A stretch of DNA of 43,791 nucleotides from a virus (Duplodnaviria > Heunggongvirae > Uroviricota > Caudoviricetes). The position numbers and the translations under genes were made by a program. Numbering within the stretch: the stretch's first letter is position 1; every line of letters starts with the position of its first letter. Under the pieces are notes generated by a model. It saw only the letters and a program-made list of their open reading frames with translations, was not told the DNA's origin and ran no database searches. The stretch lies in the IMG/VR virus record IMGVR_UViG_648861009_000009; one strand, given 5' to 3'. Shown in pieces: positions 1 to 43,791 of the stretch.

Positions 1-933
1 ATGGACAACGACAAAATTGATCAACACAGCGACGAAATTGAAGTTGAGAGCGAAGAAAAAGAGCGCGGCAAAAAAATAGAAATAGATGAAGATCGACTCC
101 CCTCCCGGGCGATGGCAATTCATGAGCATATCCGCCAGGATGGTGAAAAAGAGCTGGAACGCGACGCAATGGCACTACTGTGGTCAGCCATTGCGGCGGG
201 TCTGTCGATGGGCGCTTCATTACTGGCAAAAGGGATATTTCATGTCGAACTGGAAGGTGTGCCGGGCAGCTTCTTGCTGGAGAATCTCGGTTATACCTTT
301 GGTTTTATTATCGTCATTATGGCCCGCCAGCAATTATTTACCGAAAACACCGTGACTGCGGTACTACCCGTCATGCAAAAACCGACAATGAGCAACGTTG
401 GCTTACTTATGCGGTTATGGGGCGTCGTGCTGCTGGGTAATATTCTCGGGACAGGTATTGCGGCGTGGGCATTTGAATATATGCCAATCTTCAATGAAGA
501 AACTCGCGATGCATTTGTCAAAATCGGCATGGATGTGATGAAGAACACCCCCAGCGAGATGTTTGCCAACGCGATCATTTCCGGCTGGCTGATCGCCACT
601 ATGGTATGGATGTTTCCTGCAGCGGGTGCGGCAAAGATTGTGGTGATTATATTGATGACCTGGCTTATTGCCCTGGGTGACACCACTCACATCGTTGTCG
701 GTTCTGTTGAAATCCTCTATCTGGTGTTTAACGGTACGCTGCACTGGAGCGATTTCATCTGGCCCTTCGCACTACCTACTTTAGCGGGGAACATCTGCGG
801 CGGCACCTTTATCTTCGCGTTAATGAGTCATGCACAGATTCGTAACGACATGAGCAACAAGCGCAAAGCAGAAGCACGCCAAAAAGCAGAACGTGCGGAA
901 AACATTAAGAAAAATGATAAAAACCCGGCATAA
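1..933 (+). CDS. yfdC: Formate/nitrite-transporter-family inner membrane protein YfdC (host gene)
   Basis: 310-aa ORF, multi-TM, matches remembered E. coli YfdC; lies immediately upstream of argW as in K-12. Confidence 0.85.
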   Translation: MDNDKIDQHSDEIEVESEEKERGKKIEIDEDRLPSRAMAIHEHIRQDGEKELERDAMALLWSAIAAGLSMGASLLAKGIFHVELEGVPGSFLLENLGYTFGFIIVIMARQQLFTENTVTAVLPVMQKPTMSNVGLLMRLWGVVLLGNILGTGIAAWAFEYMPIFNEETRDAFVKIGMDVMKNTPSEMFANAIISGWLIATMVWMFPAAGAAKIVVIILMTWLIALGDTTHIVVGSVEILYLVFNGTLHWSDFIWPFALPTLAGNICGGTFIFALMSHAQIRNDMSNKRKAEARQKAERAENIKKNDKNPA

Positions 934-1008
934 ATGGCGAGGGTTTAAGCAATCGAGCGGCAGCGTACTTACCCCGCAGTCCATTAGCGGGTATACTCAT
1001 GCCGCATT

Positions 1009-1083
1009 GTCCTCTTAGTTAAATGGATATAACGAGCCCCTCCTAAGGGCTAATTGCAGGTTCGATTCCTGCAGGGGACACCA
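1009..1083 (+). tRNA. argW: tRNA-Arg (anticodon CCU)
   Basis: 75-nt sequence GTCCTCTTAGTTAAATGGATATAACGAGCCCCTCCTAAGGGCTAATTGCAGGTTCGATTCCTGCAGGGGACACCA; cloverleaf, CCT anticodon, 3' CCA. Confidence 0.9.
1069..1083. repeat. attL core (15-bp direct repeat, 3' end of argW)
   Basis: ctgcaggggacacca repeated exactly at 42088-42102. Confidence 0.75.
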
Positions 1084-1244
1084 TTTATCAGTTCGCTCCC
1101 ATCCGTACCAGTCCGCAAAATCCCCTGAATATCAAGCCTTCCGTAGATTCACAGTTCGTCATGGTTCGCGTCAGATCGTTGACAGCCGCACTCCATGACG
1201 GGTAAAAAGTGGATAAAATAATTTTACCCACCGGATTTTTACCC

Positions 1245-2402
1245 ATGCTCACCGTTAAGCAGATTGAAGCAGCAAAGCCGAAAGAAAAACCATACCGCCT
1301 TCTCGATGGTAATGGCCTGTACCTTTATGTCCCTGTGTCAGGGAAAAAGGTATGGCAGCTTCGCTACAAGATTGACGGTAAGGAGAAAATCCTGACCGTC
1401 GGGAAATATCCGCTTATGAGTTTGCAGGAGGCAAGGGATAAAGCATGGACCGCGAGGAAAGACATCTCGGTTGGCATCGATCCGGTAAAAGCGAAAAAGG
1501 CTTCGTCTAACAACAATTCCTTTAGCGCCATTTACAAGGAATGGTACGAGCACAAGAAGCAAGTATGGTCAGTAGGGTATGCGACTGAACTTGCAAAAAT
1601 GTTTGATGACGACATTTTACCTATCATCGGCGGCCTTGAAATTCAGGATATTGAGCCGATAAAACTGCTGGAAGTAATCCGCAGATTTGAAGATCGCGGT
1701 GCAATGGAGCGAGCCAACAAAGCCCGCAGAAGATGCGGAGAGGTTTTCCGTTACGCTATTGTCACTGGTAGGGCTAAATATAACCCGGCACCTGACCTTG
1801 CTGACGCCATGAAGGGATACCGCAAGAAGAACTTCCCGTTTCTCCCAGCAGACCAGATCCCTGCATTCAACAAAGCACTGGCAACATTTTCAGGAAGCAT
1901 CATATCGCTCATTGCGACCAAAGTTTTACGCTACACAGCCCTAAGAACGAAAGAGCTTCGCTCCATGCAATGGAAGAACGTCGATTTTGAAAACAGGATT
2001 ATCACTATCGACGCCAGTGTGATGAAGGGCCGCAAAATTCATGTGGTCCCGATGTCAGACCAGGTGGTTGAACTTCTCACTACGCTAAGCTCAATCACCA
2101 AACCAGTCTCAGAGTTTGTTTTTGCCGGGCGCAACGATAAGAAGAAGCCAATCTGCGAGAACGCGGTTCTACTTGTGATCAAACAAATCGGCTATGAGGG
2201 TCTGGAAAGCGGTCACGGATTCAGGCATGAATTCAGCACGATTATGAACGAGCACGAATGGCCTGCTGACGCTATTGAAGTGCAACTTGCACATGCCAAC
2301 GGCGGATCTGTGCGTGGAATTTACAACCATGCTCAGTATCTCGATAAGCGCAGAGAAATGATGCAGTGGTGGGCGGACTGGATTGATGAAAAGGTGGGCT
2401 AA
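1245..2402 (+). CDS. intS: Tyrosine integrase IntS-type
   Basis: ORF 1209-2402 (GTG at 1209); ATG at 1245 gives MLTVKQIEAAKPKEKPYRLLDGNGLYLYVP matching remembered K-12 IntS; adjacent to argW. Confidence 0.88.
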   Translation: MLTVKQIEAAKPKEKPYRLLDGNGLYLYVPVSGKKVWQLRYKIDGKEKILTVGKYPLMSLQEARDKAWTARKDISVGIDPVKAKKASSNNNSFSAIYKEWYEHKKQVWSVGYATELAKMFDDDILPIIGGLEIQDIEPIKLLEVIRRFEDRGAMERANKARRRCGEVFRYAIVTGRAKYNPAPDLADAMKGYRKKNFPFLPADQIPAFNKALATFSGSIISLIATKVLRYTALRTKELRSMQWKNVDFENRIITIDASVMKGRKIHVVPMSDQVVELLTTLSSITKPVSEFVFAGRNDKKKPICENAVLLVIKQIGYEGLESGHGFRHEFSTIMNEHEWPADAIEVQLAHANGGSVRGIYNHAQYLDKRREMMQWWADWIDEKVG

Positions 2403-2423
2403 CCAACGCTATATCTCAGATAG

Positions 2424-2457
2424 CACAAAGCCTTGCAATCCAGTGCAAAGCTTTGTG
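2424..2457. repeat. Imperfect 14-bp-arm inverted repeat between convergent int and late operon (possible bidirectional terminator)
   Basis: cacaaagccttgca / tgcaaagctttgtg with 6-nt loop; no clear U-tract. Confidence 0.3.
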
Positions 2458-2493
2458 TGTCTCAGTTTTGCCTCATAGGTAACTCTGTGTTAA

Positions 2494-2793
2494 CTACGAT
2501 GCAAGAATCCATACCAATAAGCATCCGATAATTGGGAAAGAAAAATCCAACAAACTTCCCACATCCCACACGCGTGGATCAAAACCTCCCCACCACGGCA
2601 TGTTGACACGTTTCCCTTTCCCAAACTTTTCTATCCAGCGATATTCTGCCTGGGTGTGTTCACGCGCAATGAAGAACGTACAACCGGCTATCGCACCGTA
2701 AGCCCAGTTTCCGGTAAAAATACCAACCAGTACCTGAGCCGCAAAAGCGCAAAGCGAGTGAAGAAATGGAGTGACATCAATGCTCTTAATCAT
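2494..2793 (-). CDS. Small 3-TM membrane protein at the lysogenic-conversion locus (moron, function unknown)
   Basis: 99-aa ORF; start overlaps tailspike stop (ATGA); hydrophobic segments; occupies the slot between tailspike and int where gtrABC/oac lie in relatives. Confidence 0.55.
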   Translation of the reverse strand: MIKSIDVTPFLHSLCAFAAQVLVGIFTGNWAYGAIAGCTFFIAREHTQAEYRWIEKFGKGKRVNMPWWGGFDPRVWDVGSLLDFSFPIIGCLLVWILAS

Positions 2794-4930
2794 GAAACTT
2801 CCCCATTGGTTGAAAATATGGCTCCTCCAACTCCAAGTGTATTTCGTGTTGTGCTCAACCTAAGAGGGCTGGAGTCAGAATTAGAATATCCTGTAGCAGA
2901 AATAAAAGATCCTCCACTAATAGTCAACTGCGGAACATCGGCTATATCTGAATAAGTTCTGTCAGCAACAGTATTATTTATAGCCACATGTGATCCAAAA
3001 AAACTTCTTATTGTTTGGTTTTTAACTTTACTTCCTTCAATGGTTATCCTACTACCACAGTCAGCAATAAATCCTGAATCTGCATCCAGCGTTGCATTCA
3101 TAAAAGAAGCTTCAGATCTCTCTACATCAATCCATCTAATATCTTTTGTGGGATTTGCACCAAATACATGACAAATATTAGAGTTAAACCTTACACCATC
3201 TTGGAGGTGCATTAATTTTTTTATATCTGTACCCCATAGCCTTGGAAAATTAACAGATGCTCCTGCATGGCAATCAAATCCCAACTCAGCCCCTGAGATA
3301 TCTACAGCCTTTCCTGAAATAACAGCACCAGTGTCTGCATTAACGGCTGTTCCACAATTGCGCATATCATTACCAGCAATATCAACACAACTCGCACCAT
3401 CAATACGCACACCAAGTGCACATCCATAAAAACCTTTTTCAATATTTGGTTCAAGGACTTTACCACTTGTTTCTGCATCACTTTCTTCAACGTCATGTCG
3501 TCTTGCATCAACATATGCTGTATGAATGCAGGTTAATCCACGATATGAGCAATGTATAGTTTTATGGTCGCGTATATTAACATTTNNNNNNNNNNNNNNN
3601 NNNNNNNNNNNNNNNNNNNNNNNNNNNNNNNNNNNNNNNNNNNNNNNNNNNNNNNNNNNNNNNNNNNNNAACCATCTCTTACATTCCATCCTATATAACA
3701 ATAGCTTGCACTTGACCCCTGAAAATCTGCTTTAACATTATAAATACAATTAACTGACGCAACCGTACTCTCTGTGCACCGTTCAAACTTGCTTACAGGC
3801 ATTGATGCCTTGACATTATTTACCAGTTGCAGGGAAGAGTATCTGCTATAAGAAAAATCACATACGTAATACCCTTCTGGCATATATGCAGCAACACTTT
3901 CCTCATCAGGAGCACATCCGGTATGATATGCACTAATTTTTGCACCAAAGCTACCATGAATTCCAACGTAGAACTTTCGAGCACCTGAATACGGATAGAA
4001 ATTAAGTTCAGCTTTTTGAGTTACAATAAATGCACAAACATCGCTATCATCTCTATTTTCTTCAATCTGAATAGCAAATACAGGACTTTTTGCTGCATCG
4101 CAAATGTAAAATAAATATTTGTATTCGTAATACGTCCTAACAGTTTTAGTAAACAAACTGGTATCAGAGAAAACCACTGAGTCTTCTGATATTATTTTAA
4201 TCCATGATAAGTCACATCCTGCTGAAATTTCTATTTGCTCATTGAGCACAAAACCGGAAAGAATTTTAATTATGCAAAAGTCAATGCCATTTTTCCATAG
4301 TGGACGCAGTGCAACAGCCGAGTTTAGAGCATCACTAATAGATTTAAAATTACCATATTCCCCAACTGTTATTGTGAATGCATACCTGGAATTAAATACT
4401 GCGGCACTCTCTCCAGAGTTAATAGCTGCAGATATCATGTCATAATTTGATATAAAATCATTTGGCGTGATTATTTCTGCGTTTTTATTGTGCTGTGTTC
4501 TAAGTTTTGAATTTACATGAACACTTTTAACTGCAATACGGGAGTCGTCAACAAGTATTTCATTACCCTCTGTTGCTAACTCTTGTCTTAACTGATCCGG
4601 GTCATACTTCAGCACATTCGGAAAATTGAACTGCTGTGCACCATACGCATCATAAACAGCCATAGAATGGCCTTGCTCAGTTACGAATTTGGCAATCTGT
4701 CCGTTATATACAGGGTAACCAGCAGCGTTAATGATGATTGGTTGCGATACAGGAACGTGAGAACCGTCTTCATTCTCCACATAAACCTGAATCTGGTTTT
4801 CAGGATTTACAGGGTCAGTGTCAATTTTTCCGATATAAATTTTGCCATTGGCAACCGCTTTAAAAGAACGTGCCATAGTGAAGAGTTGCGAAGGCATCGA
4901 TACGATCACATTGGCTGTAATGTCTGTCAT
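2790..4930 (-). CDS. Tailspike protein, P22 gp9-type N-terminal head-binding domain plus distinct receptor-binding domain; interrupted by assembly gap
   Basis: N-terminus [43 protein letters not shown] matches P22 tailspike; ORF spans N-run 3586-3669. Confidence 0.85.
3586..3669. other. Assembly gap (84 N) inside tailspike gene
   Basis: Run of N. Confidence 0.95.
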
Positions 4931-4996
4931 TTAATTTGCTCCAGATACAATGAATCGCCGCAGCGTGGCTACGGTTGGTATTTGTTTTGTTTTTGA

Positions 4997-26566: not shown

Positions 26567-26735
26567 CGTCTTCTTCCTCGTACATTGAGCTATTCGGATC
26601 GCTCATCAGTTCTGCGCAGCAGTGCTCACACACGTGAACTTCCAGCACATGCAGCTTCTGGCCGCAGTTAGCGCACGTTAAAGCTCGCTCGACGCTTTCT
26701 TTCTGGTATTGAAGGGATTGGGATGGGCTAAGCAT
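26559..26735 (-). CDS. ninF: NinF
   Basis: Internal start gives [46 protein letters not shown] matching lambda NinF. Confidence 0.7.
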   Translation of the reverse strand: MLSPSQSLQYQKESVERALTCANCGQKLHVLEVHVCEHCCAELMSDPNSSMYEEEDDE

Positions 26736-27135
26736 GGCTTTCACCATTAAAAAGTCGCTTGTAAGCATCAATGTCTCGTTTTGCTTCACCAAGCTTTCGT
26801 CTTAATTCCATGTTTTCTGATTCAAGCTTTTCCATGTCTTGTTGGTATCGATCGCGGTGTTCTTTCCATGCTTTTTGATACGCCTTCATGTATGTCATGT
26901 TGGCCTTTCTCTTTGCCTGACGAACTGCGTGGTGGTTTTTCACAAACCAGTCAGGGTCGTTAAATGCTGCTCTGGCGCATGTATACCAATAATTTGTTGC
27001 CTCCCTGTTTAGCCAATAAATACTGATAAATGGCAACCGGATAGACACCATTTTTCGTTGTGACTCTTTCTCGCCAAACATGTGGCCTTTTTTGATGCTA
27101 AGTCCAAATCCAGGTTGAATTAAAAGCATTGTCAT
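26728..27135 (-). CDS. Hypothetical protein with C-terminal coiled coil (inserted between ninE and ninF)
   Basis: ORF 26728-27171; ATG at 27135 overlaps ninE stop (ATGA). Confidence 0.45.
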
Positions 27136-27308
27136 TTCCTCGCGCGATGTCTTAGCCACCGGATATCCCACAGGTGAGCCGTGTAGTTGAAGGTTTTTAC
27201 GTCAGATTCTTTTGGGATTGGCTTGCGTTTATTTCTGGAGAGTTTCGTTGGAAGGTATTTGCAGTTTTCGCAGATGATGTCGGTGATACTTCGTCGCTGT
27301 CGCCTCAT
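27132..27308 (-). CDS. ninE: NinE
   Basis: Internal start gives [22 protein letters not shown]...[14 protein letters not shown] matching lambda NinE. Confidence 0.75.
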
Positions 27309-28309
27309 GCCGCCCTCCTGACGCCCTGCCCGATCGCCATCAATGCCGCTTTGGATACGGTAGTAAACATCCGTCGAGGACTGATGAACGGTCGCCAAAT
27401 CAGCAGCATGGAGCCTTTGCTGTTTCCCTTCTTCTCTAGCCCCGTCGATGGTTCGATAAAATTAATCCGTCCATCAGTGATAATACGAACTTCGTCAACA
27501 CTCTCCAGAGCCTTGCTGAACCATCCGACTGACATATCCTCTGGCACAAGCATAACTACCGTCTGTCGCTGTTGTATGCACTGCTCAGCGGCTTTTTCCA
27601 CCCACGGCCTGATATTGCTGTACGGTGGGTTATTCCAGATTGCACCGTGGCTTACCCACTCAGAATTGAGCGCGTCGTCGGCCTCAGTTAGCCAGTGAGC
27701 GCACAGAGCATTTTTGNNNNNNNNNNNNNNNNNNNNNNNNNNNNNNNNNNNNNNNNNNNNNNNNNNNNNNNNNNNNNNNNNNNNNNNNNNNNNNNNNNNN
27801 NNNNNNNNNNNNNNNNNNNNNNNNNNNNNNNNNNNNNNNNNNNNNNNNNNNNNNNNNNNNNNNNNNNNNNNNNNNNNNNNNNNNNNNNNNNNNNNNNNNN
27901 NNNNNNNNNNNNNNNNNNNNNNNNNNNNNNNNNNNNNNNNNNNNNNNNNNNNNNNNNNNNNNNNNNNNNNNNNNNNNNNNNNNNAGCCTTGCTGAACCAT
28001 CCGACTGACATTATCCTCTGGCACAAGCATAACTACCGTCTGTCGCTGTTGTATGCACTGCTCAGCGGCTTTTTCCACCCACGGCCTGATATTGCTGTAC
28101 GGTGGGTTATTCCAGATTGCACCGTGGCTTACCCACTCAGAATTGAGCGCGTCGTCGGCCTCAGTTAGCCAGTGAGCGCACAGAGCATTTTTGTCGCTCG
28201 CTGCCGAATCCAGCCAGAATCCAAACTCAATATCCAGTGCATCAAAAAGCCAAAGCGGCGTTTGCCAGCAGTCCTTGTCGTGTGCTGGCGTATTTGATTT
28301 GATAGTCAT
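27305..28309 (-). CDS. Phage N6-adenine DNA methyltransferase (Dam-like), reading frame spans assembly gap and duplicated flank
   Basis: [19 protein letters not shown]...AIWNNPPYS (NPPY motif IV); gap 27717-27984; true gene probably ~180 codons. Confidence 0.7.
27717..27984. other. Assembly gap (268 N) flanked by ~200-bp duplicated sequence
   Basis: 27510-27716 repeats at 27985-28190 with a 1-nt indel. Confidence 0.9.
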
Positions 28310-28752
28310 GCAGCCTTCCCTTTTCGTTGTGACCATTCATACTCTCGCCGGGAGTCATCACTCCACCGCACGTTGCGCTCTGAGCCGAACCAGAACATGA
28401 TTTCGATAAGCTCAGTCATGCTGGCCTTTCGCATTTTGCTGGTACGCACGCCAAGCATAACAACGCCACCGTCGATACCAGGCGCACTTCGTTGCTCCAG
28501 TTTTTTGGTCTTAAGCCACAGGGCAGTGAACAGATCTTTCCAGTCCTCCGGCGCAAGTCTCTCTCCATGCCAGAGCACCTGACGCGATACGTCCTGCAAT
28601 AACGCCCACATAAGGCGGTTTTGAGGATTGCTCCGCTTTGGTTCTTTAATGTGGACTTCGTGAGGTGACTTGTCGTCGATCGGAAGTGAGAGTATTGCGT
28701 CTATGGCGTTGTTTCTGATTGCTTCGTTGCGAAGCATGTATATTTGCTTCAT
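28306..28752 (-). CDS. ninB: NinB (recombination mediator)
   Basis: SNPQNRLMWALLQDVSRQVLWHGERLAPEDWKDLFTA and C-terminal WS...EW match lambda NinB; start at MKQIYML. Confidence 0.8.
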   Translation of the reverse strand: MKQIYMLRNEAIRNNAIDAILSLPIDDKSPHEVHIKEPKRSNPQNRLMWALLQDVSRQVLWHGERLAPEDWKDLFTALWLKTKKLEQRSAPGIDGGVVMLGVRTSKMRKASMTELIEIMFWFGSERNVRWSDDSRREYEWSQRKGKAA

Positions 28753-28759
28753 CGTTACC

Positions 28760-28966
28760 TCAACTAACAAAACGCCACGCCATTTTTGCTACAGCGACAG
28801 GCATAACACCGATAATCACCCAGACAAATGCAGCGCCAAACAACGTATACCATGGGTCTTTACCGTCATTCACAAGACGAATGTAGCTATGCAGAACAAT
28901 AAATAACGTCAGAAGAATCCATCCAACGCCAACGCATTTGAATGCGACGAGCATAAACTCAGCCAC
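28760..28966 (-). CDS. Small membrane protein (ren position)
   Basis: 68-aa hydrophobic ORF between replication gene and ninB. Confidence 0.4.
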   Translation of the reverse strand: MAEFMLVAFKCVGVGWILLTLFIVLHSYIRLVNDGKDPWYTLFGAAFVWVIIGVMPVAVAKMAWRFVS

Positions 28967-28983
28967 GATTTACTCTCCCCCAA

Positions 28984-36031: not shown

Positions 36032-36886
36032 ATGAGTGAAGTAACAGATTTAGTTGTTATTGAAAAAGCAAATGCAATGACTGTATTTCAGTCTGCCGAC
36101 CAGATTGAAGAAATCCTTCAAAAGGTTGAACGTGAAGTTATGTCCTTTGTGCCTGATATCACAACGGCAAAGGGCAGAAAGGAGATCGCTTCTCTGGCGT
36201 ATAAAGTTGCGCAGACGAAAACATATCTCGATGGTCTTGGCAAAGACCTTGTTGCTGAACTGAAGGAAATTCCAAAGCTAATTGATGCCAACCGCAAGAC
36301 AGTGCGCGATCGCCTTGATGAACTGAAAGCCAAGGCGCGCCAGCCTCTTACTGATTATGAGGAAGAACAGGCGCGGATTAAAGCCGAAGAAGAAGCTAAG
36401 GCAGCAGCTGAAGCTCTCGCAAAGCAAATTGAGTCTGACCATGAAATAGCGATTTTGATGGATCGCGAATTTGACCGCCAAAGAGAAGAGGCAAGACTCA
36501 AAGCGGAGCAGGAAAAGCGAGAGCATGAAGAACGATTAAAAAGAGAAGCTGAAGAGAAAGCCAGAGCAGAAGCCGAAGCAAAGGCAAAAGCCGAAATTGA
36601 AGCAGCAGCAAGGCGAGAAGCAGAAGCTAAGGCCGCAGCGGAACGTGCAGAGCGTGAACGCATTGAAGCCGAGCAACGAGCACAGCGCGAAGCAAAAGAG
36701 GCAGCAGAACGAGCTGAAAGAGAAAAGCAGGCAGCAATTGAAGCAGAACGCAGAAAAGCACAGGAGGAGGCTGAACGAATCCGTCGCGAGGCTGAAGCAA
36801 AAGAGCAAGCCAGAATAGCAGAAGAAAAAGAATCAAGGACGAAGAAGAGCGCAGAGCAAAGGATAAAGCTCACCGGAAAGAAGTAA
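36032..36886 (+). CDS. Coiled-coil protein with long E/A/K/R-rich low-complexity region; possible frameshifted C-terminus to 36999
   Basis: 284-aa ORF, RBS AAGGAGGA; stop-free downstream frame encodes ...NNKILADLIKVGASEDVAKNIITAIVKGEVFATKITY. Confidence 0.55.
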   Translation: MSEVTDLVVIEKANAMTVFQSADQIEEILQKVEREVMSFVPDITTAKGRKEIASLAYKVAQTKTYLDGLGKDLVAELKEIPKLIDANRKTVRDRLDELKAKARQPLTDYEEEQARIKAEEEAKAAAEALAKQIESDHEIAILMDREFDRQREEARLKAEQEKREHEERLKREAEEKARAEAEAKAKAEIEAAARREAEAKAAAERAERERIEAEQRAQREAKEAAERAEREKQAAIEAERRKAQEEAERIRREAEAKEQARIAEEKESRTKKSAEQRIKLTGKK

Positions 36887-41680: not shown

Positions 41681-41813
41681 CCATAAAATAACACGCCTCA
41701 CACTCGATGAGGCATGTTCATTGCTCAAGATATCCAGACCTATCATCGCCGCATCAATGCGTTTTTTTATTGCCTGATTTGCAGGTTCGATTCCCTATTC
41801 GGAGATAGCACTC

Positions 41814-42014
41814 ATGCAACACGAACTACAGCCTGATTCACTGGTTGATTTGAAATTCATCATGGCCGATACTGGCTTCGGTAAAACCTTCATCTATGAC
41901 CGGATTAAGTCCGGCGACCTGCCAAAAGCCAAAGTTATCCACGGGCGAGCAAGATGGTTATATCGTGACCATTGTGAATTCAAAAATAAGCTCTTAAGCC
42001 GCGCCAATGGGTAA
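41814..42014 (+). CDS. torI: Excisionase TorI/AlpA family
   Basis: 66 aa MQHELQPDSLVDLKFIMADTGFGKTFIYDRIKSGDLPKAKVIHGRARWLY; winged-helix excisionase pattern matching remembered KplE1 TorI; adjacent to attR. Confidence 0.8.
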   Translation: MQHELQPDSLVDLKFIMADTGFGKTFIYDRIKSGDLPKAKVIHGRARWLYRDHCEFKNKLLSRANG

Positions 42015-42087
42015 AATAGCGGGTAAAATATTTCTCACATCTAAAAAACATCATTCTAATCAATCCCCTGTCACGTCAAGTAGATGT

Positions 42088-42102
42088 CTGCAGGGGACAC
42101 CA
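42088..42102. repeat. attR core (15-bp direct repeat of argW 3' end)
   Basis: ctgcaggggacacca identical to 1069-1083. Confidence 0.75.
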
Positions 42103-42543
42103 GATACCCTTCTAACAATATCTACCTTCACCCCGTAAAAGATGGGTTTGGCAGCACACTTGCCCTATATCTACTCATTTTTACTGCAACAGGTTGAAAT
42201 CTCAGCACTGTCAGAAAGCGCTGATGACTAAACAGCCCTGGGCCGGGCGATGTAACCATCATACAGAATCCTGATAGCGAAATATGGCGTGACTCGATAC
42301 TTCACTCTGCAATGCGTTCCTTGATGAATTCGCAGGCCCGTGATACACGGGACAAGTCGCTGAATGACGACAATGTCCTGGAAATCAGCGAACCGCGTAT
42401 CCGGAGTACATTTGAGCGACTGTACCAGAACATGAATGAGGCGTTTGGATTAGGTGATTATTAGTTGGGCTAAGCATTTTTGTATTATTATTTTCCGGTT
42501 GAGGGATATGGAGATATCGACAACAACCGGAAAAAGTTTACGT

Positions 42544-43791
42544 CTATATTGCTGAAGGTACAGGCGTTTCCATAACTATTTGCTCGCGTTTTTTACTCAG
42601 GAAGAAAATGCCAAATAGCAACATCAGGCAGACAATACCCGAAATTGCGAAGAAAACTGTCTGGTAGCCTGCGTGGTCAAAGAGTATCCCAGTCGGCGTT
42701 GAAAGCAGCACAATCCCAAGCGAACTGGCAATTTGAAAACCAATCAGAAAGATCGTCGACGACAGGCGCTTATCAAAGTTTGCCACGCTGTATTTGAAGA
42801 CGGATATGACACAAAGTGGAACCTCAATGGCATGTAACAGCTTCACTAATGAAATAATCCAGGGGTTAACGAACAACGCGCAGGAAAGGATACGCAACGC
42901 CATAATCACAACACCGATAAGTAATGCATTTTTTGGCCCTACCCGATTCACAAAGAAAGGAATAATCGCCATGCACAGCGCTTCGAGTACCACCTGGAAT
43001 GAGTTGAGATAACCATACAGGCGCGTTCCTACATCGTGTGATTCGAATAAACCTGCATAAAAGACAGGAAAGAGTTGTTGATCAAAAATGTTATAGAAAG
43101 ACCACGTCCCCACAATAAATATGACAAAAACCCAGAAGTTTCGATCCTTGAAAACTGCGATAAAATCCTCTTTTTTTACCCCTCCCGCATCCGCCGCTAC
43201 ACACTGGTGACCCTTATCTTTAAAACGCATGTTGATCATCATAAATACAGCGCCAAATAGCGAGACCAGCCAGAAGTTGATATGGGGACTGATACTAAAA
43301 AATATGCCGGCAAAGAACGCGCCAATAGCATAGCCAAAAGATCCCCAGGCGCGCGCTGTTCCATATTCGAAATGAAAATTTCGCGCCATTTTTTCAGTGA
43401 AGCTGTCAAGCAAACCACATCCCGCCAGATACCCCAGGCCAAAAAAGAGCGCCCCCAGAATTAGACCTACAGAAAAATTGCTTTGCAGTAACGGTTCATA
43501 AACGTAAATCATAAACGGTCCGGTCAAGACCAGAATGAAACTCATACACCAGATGAGCGGTTTCTTCAGACCGAGTTTATCCTGAACGATGCCGTAGAAC
43601 ATCATAAATAGAATGCTGGTAAACTGGTTGACCGAATAAAGTGTACCTAATTCCGTCCCTGTTAATCCTAGATGTCCTTTCAGCCAAATAGCGTATAACG
43701 ACCACCACAGCGACCAGGAAATAAAAAAGAGAAATGAGTAACTGGATGCAAAACGATAGTACGCATTTCTGAATGGAATATTCAGTGCCAT
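42544..43791 (-). CDS. cscB: Sucrose:H+ symporter CscB (LacY-family MFS)
   Basis: 415 aa, 12-TM, matches remembered E. coli CscB; csc locus is known to lie near argW in sucrose-positive strains. Confidence 0.85.
   Translation of the reverse strand: MALNIPFRNAYYRFASSYSFLFFISWSLWWSLYAIWLKGHLGLTGTELGTLYSVNQFTSILFMMFYGIVQDKLGLKKPLIWCMSFILVLTGPFMIYVYEPLLQSNFSVGLILGALFFGLGYLAGCGLLDSFTEKMARNFHFEYGTARAWGSFGYAIGAFFAGIFFSISPHINFWLVSLFGAVFMMINMRFKDKGHQCVAADAGGVKKEDFIAVFKDRNFWVFVIFIVGTWSFYNIFDQQLFPVFYAGLFESHDVGTRLYGYLNSFQVVLEALCMAIIPFFVNRVGPKNALLIGVVIMALRILSCALFVNPWIISLVKLLHAIEVPLCVISVFKYSVANFDKRLSSTIFLIGFQIASSLGIVLLSTPTGILFDHAGYQTVFFAISGIVCLMLLFGIFFLSKKREQIVMETPVPSAI

Follow-up and report, generated by a model that had tools for sequence, protein, structure and literature searches.

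The DNA analysed here (the window) is a stretch of 43,791 nucleotides held as IMG/VR virus record IMGVR_UViG_648861009_000009, and comprises a complete prophage in an E. coli chromosome, the two argW ends of which lie on opposite sides of a 268-N gap. The left end (window 1-2402) carries yfdC, a tRNA-Arg(CCT) gene at 1009-1083 and intS, followed by the tailspike gene, a set of P22-like morphogenesis genes, the lysis genes and Q. The nin region is organized, from left to right, as ninH, rusA, an HNH/DUF1364 gene, ninF, ninE, dam and ninB. To the right of ninB lie a toprim primase gene, O, the immunity region, erf, the ea genes, torI and a host gene for an oligosaccharide MFS transporter; the last two, the transporter being cscB-like, occupy the right end (41700-43791). 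The prophage therefore joins a KplE1-type IntS/TorI recombination module to P22-like morphogenesis genes and to an early region of the lambdoid type. The gene order across the 268-N gap is the same as that of phages mEp043 and Sf101. Megablast of large pieces of the window against phages and complete E. coli genomes found no near-identical prophage, and returned mosaic relatives only, with at most 76% coverage at ~97-98% identity.

The nin region also contains an ORF of 147 aa (26728-27171, minus strand) between ninF and ninE, which has no Pfam match at E ≤ 0.001; mEp043 has no counterpart of this ORF, and its ninF directly abuts ninE. Farther to the right, an imperfect GAA/GCA-rich coding repeat at 36386-36823, rich in Glu, Ala and Lys, is located within an ORF at 36032-36886, a region in which related phages have a protein annotated as 'TolA'.

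The dam gene is split by the scaffold gap, which is flanked on its two sides by copies of one block of sequence (Table 1). The two copies differ by a single inserted T only, reading GACATATCC at 27531 in copy 1 and GACATTATCC at 28007 in copy 2, and the remaining 208 positions are identical. A repeat finder splits the block into exact matches of 27 nt and 182 nt, with offsets of 476 and 477 nt, respectively. No other direct repeat in the 43.8-kb window comes close to it in length, the runners-up being imperfect repeats of 25-30 nt, and an identity over 208 nt cannot have arisen by chance. The preliminary description, made from the letters alone, had reported near-identical blocks with one extra T on either side of 268 N; the repeat and the length of the N run proved exact, but the limits given for the blocks (27510-27716 and 27985-28190) were slightly too narrow.

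Table 1. Features of the dam locus and of the scaffold gap, in window coordinates
Feature	Coordinates	Strand	Length	Remarks
ninE	27132..27308	-		directly downstream of dam; ATG overlaps dam stop as ATGA; PF05322, profile 1-58 of 58, E 2.1e-42
dam, 3' part	27305..27716	-		codons 40-175 and stop; codon 39 split across the join; joins directly to 28194-28309
Copy 1 of duplicated block	27509..27716		208 nt	3' end of left contig; allele with a single T (27535)
Scaffold gap	27717..27984		268 N	left and right flank match identical bases in the comparators; 624 nt in the record versus 1101 nt in the query
Copy 2 of duplicated block	27985..28193		209 nt	5' end of right contig; with the extra T
Extra T	28011..28012		1-nt insertion	TT versus single T in copy 1 and in the database sequences examined; 27 nt from right-contig start
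dam, 5' part	28194..28309	-	116 nt	first 116 nt of the gene; ATG at 28309-28307 overlaps ninB stop as ATGA
ninB (recombination protein NinB)	28306..28752	-		directly upstream of dam; PF05772, profile 1-131 of 131, E 1.8e-48; comparator NinB 447 nt

The geometry of the block is itself informative. Copy 1 ends at the last base before the N run and copy 2 starts at the first base after it, such that the suffix of the left contig is the prefix of the right contig. An overlap between two contig ends that was never merged predicts exactly this arrangement, whereas a genuine tandem duplication gives no reason for both edges of the repeat to match the edges of the gap. Such a duplication, with a period of ~477 nt in or around dam and with ~268 nt of real but unassembled sequence inside the N run, would nevertheless be compatible with the window alone. 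The 477-nt offset keeps the reading frame; an offset in frame has, in any case, a one-in-three chance.

To reconstruct the gene, we built two collapsed versions of the locus, in which either 27716 was joined to 28194, keeping the allele of copy 1, or the join was made through copy 2. The copy-1 join yields an uninterrupted minus-strand ORF, which has 528 nt and encodes 175 aa if counted from the ATG at the ninB stop, and encodes 184 aa if counted from the first in-frame ATG. The copy-2 join is frameshifted after ...VPED and reaches a stop 12 codons on. The 175-aa product of the copy-1 join is 100% identical, over all 175 residues, to RefSeq WP_000153280.1, a phage N-6-adenine-methyltransferase annotated in E. 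coli STEC346, where the start of dam and its 4-nt overlaps with ninB and ninE are identical as well. Profile searches matched the collapsed protein to the NCBIfam equivalog TIGR01712 (profile 1-165 of 165, 265.9 bits against a cut-off of 97.05) and to Pfam PF05869 (Dam; profile 1-167 of 169, E 7.6e-65, 218.1 bits against a cut-off of 28.1), and no other family was found in either Pfam or NCBIfam at the default E-value cut-off of 0.001. Judged from these profiles, the protein is a single complete domain that neither lacks a part nor carries an additional one.

The translation of the collapsed gene contains NPPY, one form of the catalytic (D/N)PPY motif, the role of which in amino-methyltransferases is well established. 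By its family, the product is predicted to be an orphan phage N6-adenine DNA methyltransferase (PF05869/TIGR01712) that methylates adenine; related phage enzymes have been reported to methylate GATC. For Stx phage Phi24B, the related gene has been termed only a 'putative Dam methyltransferase' (PMC3342100). Both size and position agree with what is expected of a nin-region dam, namely a single domain of ~170-195 aa encoded between ninB and ninE: the proteins at this position have 175 aa in STEC346, 181 aa in mEp043 and, as annotated, 195 aa in Sf101. On the downstream side, the PF05322 match of ninE begins at residue 31 of the mechanical ORF. The ATGA start/stop overlaps that dam shares with both neighbours suggest that the three genes may be translationally coupled in the early-right operon.

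These results also account for the long ORF that spans the gap. It has 343 codons (27305-28336, minus strand), is translated as X residues over the N run and stays in frame across the gap owing to the 477-nt offset, a multiple of 3. This ORF is a mechanical product of the N run and no real gene. The preliminary description had dismissed it in the same way and had put the methyltransferase at about 180 aa, and the collapsed gene agrees on both counts, its product having 175 or 184 aa depending on the start codon and, at 175 aa, full identity to WP_000153280.1. Run on the uncollapsed scaffold, a gene caller would give a methyltransferase of 343 aa with X residues in it, a pair of fragments or a pseudogene.

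Comparison with finished sequences placed the collapsed locus in a familiar setting. The collapsed 824-nt ninE-dam-ninB stretch aligns from 1 to 824 in one ungapped piece, at 98.5-99.0% identity, with the complete E. coli genomes and phages listed. Counting every record in which at least 80% of the 824-nt query is covered in one place, the colinearity extends to 631 records of complete E. coli genomes, which represent 626 genomes, and to 119 phage records; the matching records are annotated as NinE, phage N-6-adenine-methyltransferase and NinB, and the phages include VT2-Sakai, AU5Stx1 and the PA series. Local blastn further showed that in each of three comparators, E. coli STEC346 and the phages mEp043 and Sf101, both copies of the block land on a single stretch of 208 bases. 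In the comparator locus L001, for example, window 27135-27716 aligns to 2936-3517 without gaps and window 27985-28787 to 3310-4111 with one gap, so that positions 3310-3517 are covered by both copies of the window; the equivalent holds for mEp043 and Sf101.

The same was seen from the opposite direction with the uncollapsed locus (27300-28400, 1101 nt) as the query, for which 60 rows were taken at even spacing from the ranked list of 1578 matching records. The sampled matches that span query positions 1-1101 all occupy 624 nt, and those that span 1-1016 all occupy 539 nt, which is always 477 nt shorter than the query. The duplicated arrangement was found in none of the sampled finished genomes that span the stretch (60 rows over 1578 records). 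Neither this constant difference nor the colinearity of the collapsed sequence with the 631 E. coli and 119 phage records fits a real tandem duplication, and the collapsed gene already encodes a complete and database-identical enzyme.

An inserted element concealed by the N run and flanked by its target-site duplication was considered and rejected, as the sampled finished genomes are uninterrupted at this site and no known target-site duplication is nearly as long as 208 nt. Similarity of the window to mEp043 and Sf101 ends at 28315, a position within the 3' end of ninB and shortly before dam starts, and resumes at 28973. Sequence comparison places a mosaic boundary at 28315 and assigns the ninB of the window to the STEC346/Stx-phage type. 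The point at which similarity to mEp043 and Sf101 ends does not coincide with an edge of the block, and gives no support for the block edges as natural points of divergence.

Another N run of the window, 84 N long (3586-3669), interrupts the tailspike gene, which is annotated with a 'phage head-binding domain'. A flanking duplication was looked for at this gap and none was found. The complete genomes of E. coli MS 198-1 and CB7286 align without gaps on both sides of the run and have exactly one base, a G, in place of the 84 N. Replacing the run by one base fuses two overlapping mechanical ORFs (2790-3701 and 3533-4930) into one gene of 2058 nt, the same length as annotated in both comparators. 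Since 84 N stand for one base, the N runs of this scaffold neither record measured distances nor act as masks that preserve length. To the left of this gap (1-3585) the window is 99.9% identical to E. coli MS 198-1, and to the right (3670-4975) 98.0%, and the contig break coincides with this change of relatedness, which may reflect either a mosaic boundary in the tailspike gene or a contig end bounded by a repeat.

The second gap bears directly on the first. The positive gap estimate of the scaffolder would favour real sequence between the two copies, but the spurious length of the 84-N run removes this argument, which was the only one for real sequence inside the 268-N run. Taken with the edge-to-edge match of block and gap and with the 477-nt-shorter records, this makes a tandem duplication extremely unlikely. 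Some public collections do mask stretches of sequence with N, and the 268-N run could accordingly be read as a mask laid by the provider over real bases, with no assembly gap at all. A mask, however, preserves length, yet the 84-N run replaces one base in two comparators, and a mask over 268 N would need the very duplication that was rejected above; its probability is negligible.

The extra T decides whether the gene is intact. If it were real, dam would be frameshifted after ...VPED and would encode a product of 112 aa from the MTIKS start, or of 121 aa from the upstream ATG. When 5426 complete E. coli genomes were searched with an 81-mer that includes the extra T, the top-ranked rows had 98.8% identity at full coverage; an exact match over the full length would have ranked above these, so that none exists. 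The 80-mer without the extra T is found exactly in 785 records of complete E. coli genomes. Collections of 185,579 species-representative genomes, of 2.9 million viral contigs (IMG/VR) and of 241 million JGI metagenome records likewise yielded no exact match to a 41-mer with the extra T. The insertion and the start of the right contig are 27 nt apart, and the corresponding position in the left contig is 182 nt from the contig end. The extra T is very probably a contig-end consensus error or a homopolymer-type sequencing error, and dam would then be intact: the T-less allele gives a protein identical to the database entry, and the extra-T allele, which sits close to a contig end, was found nowhere else. 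The preliminary description had left the integrity of the gene uncertain on account of the indel, a doubt that is mostly settled by these searches in favour of an intact gene.

An alternative accepts the overlap as artefactual and takes the extra T as real, so that either dam is frameshifted and the T-less copy is wrong, or the two contig ends derive from two near-identical dam copies in different prophages. In the latter case, one of the dam copies would be a pseudogene and the scaffold would be locally chimeric. Complete E. coli genomes carry the dam gene at up to 5-6 places each, which makes a second copy plausible; a repeat common to different prophages would account for both contigs breaking off precisely where the 208-nt block begins or ends, and the indel would explain why the ends were left unmerged. 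Against this, no full-length exact match to the allele exists among the complete E. coli genomes and no match at all in the three contig collections, and the change from T to TT lies 27 nt from a contig end, in the zone of lowest consensus quality. At the other 208 positions the two copies agree throughout. In addition, the scaffold contains both ends of one argW prophage, in an order colinear with mEp043 and Sf101. We consider a real extra T unlikely. It is very improbable that the source strain has either a true tandem duplication of 477 nt in the ninB-dam region or a second dam copy with a true frameshift.

A chimeric join of two prophages at the scale of the whole scaffold was also considered and appears unlikely, as yfdC-argW-intS and torI-MFS transporter are the two ends of one argW prophage; chimerism limited to the 208-nt block itself is possible. 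Because both argW ends are present in one scaffold and the gene order is colinear, the join links two halves of one locus. On this evidence, the join itself is probably correct and only the overlap was mishandled.

Altogether, the same-base mapping of the two copies, the colinearity of the collapsed sequence and the 477-nt-shorter records argue for a scaffolding artefact, in which a contig overlap of ~208 nt inside the prophage dam gene was left unmerged and bridged by an N run; we put the probability of this reading at about 0.93. That overlapping contig ends had been scaffolded rather than merged was the central proposal of the preliminary description, and it stands. We propose that the window is a scaffold of a draft E. 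coli assembly carrying a complete P22-like/lambdoid prophage at tRNA-Arg (argW). Two of its contigs would have been linked by an N run of estimated length at 27717-27984 although their ends overlap by ~208 nt in dam, the overlap thus being present twice and the 343-codon ORF reading through the N. The true locus would be ninB-dam-ninE with one dam of 528 nt and a product of 175 aa. The merge may have failed at the 1-nt discrepancy, or because the block recurs as a repeat in a further prophage of that genome, or for both reasons. The gap placed by the scaffolder (+268) and the true value (about -208) differ by a large amount, which can be explained in general terms only.

Unmerged overlapping contig ends are a known class of artefact in draft assemblies. 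Like other members of this class, the dam block has identity between contig suffix and prefix, a run of N whose estimated length is arbitrary, and a minor mismatch close to a contig end. The typical k-mer overlap in unmerged contigs is shorter than the 208 nt seen here, and this length may point to an assembler of the overlap type or to a contig break bounded by a repeat. The significance of the case is confined to annotation hygiene: the window should be read with both gaps collapsed, and it holds no new biology.

The gene itself is ordinary and well known, and nothing in it is biologically different from WP_000153280.1. It occupies the same position between ninB and ninE, with the same 4-nt overlaps, as the N-6-adenine-methyltransferase gene of lambdoid/Stx prophages (dam in VT2-Sakai, AU5Stx1, mEp043 and Sf101), and the gene region of the window has 98.5-99% nucleotide identity to many phages and prophages. 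Compared to these, the window differs only in how the scaffold represents the gene, that is, in the duplicated 208-nt block, the 268 N and the one extra T. The host Dam of E. coli and the Dam of phage T4 are D12-class N6-adenine DNA methyltransferases with a (D/N)PPY motif. The window protein shares this motif with them in the form of NPPY; however, it belongs to a different family, matching PF05869/TIGR01712 only, and is, at 175 aa, much shorter.
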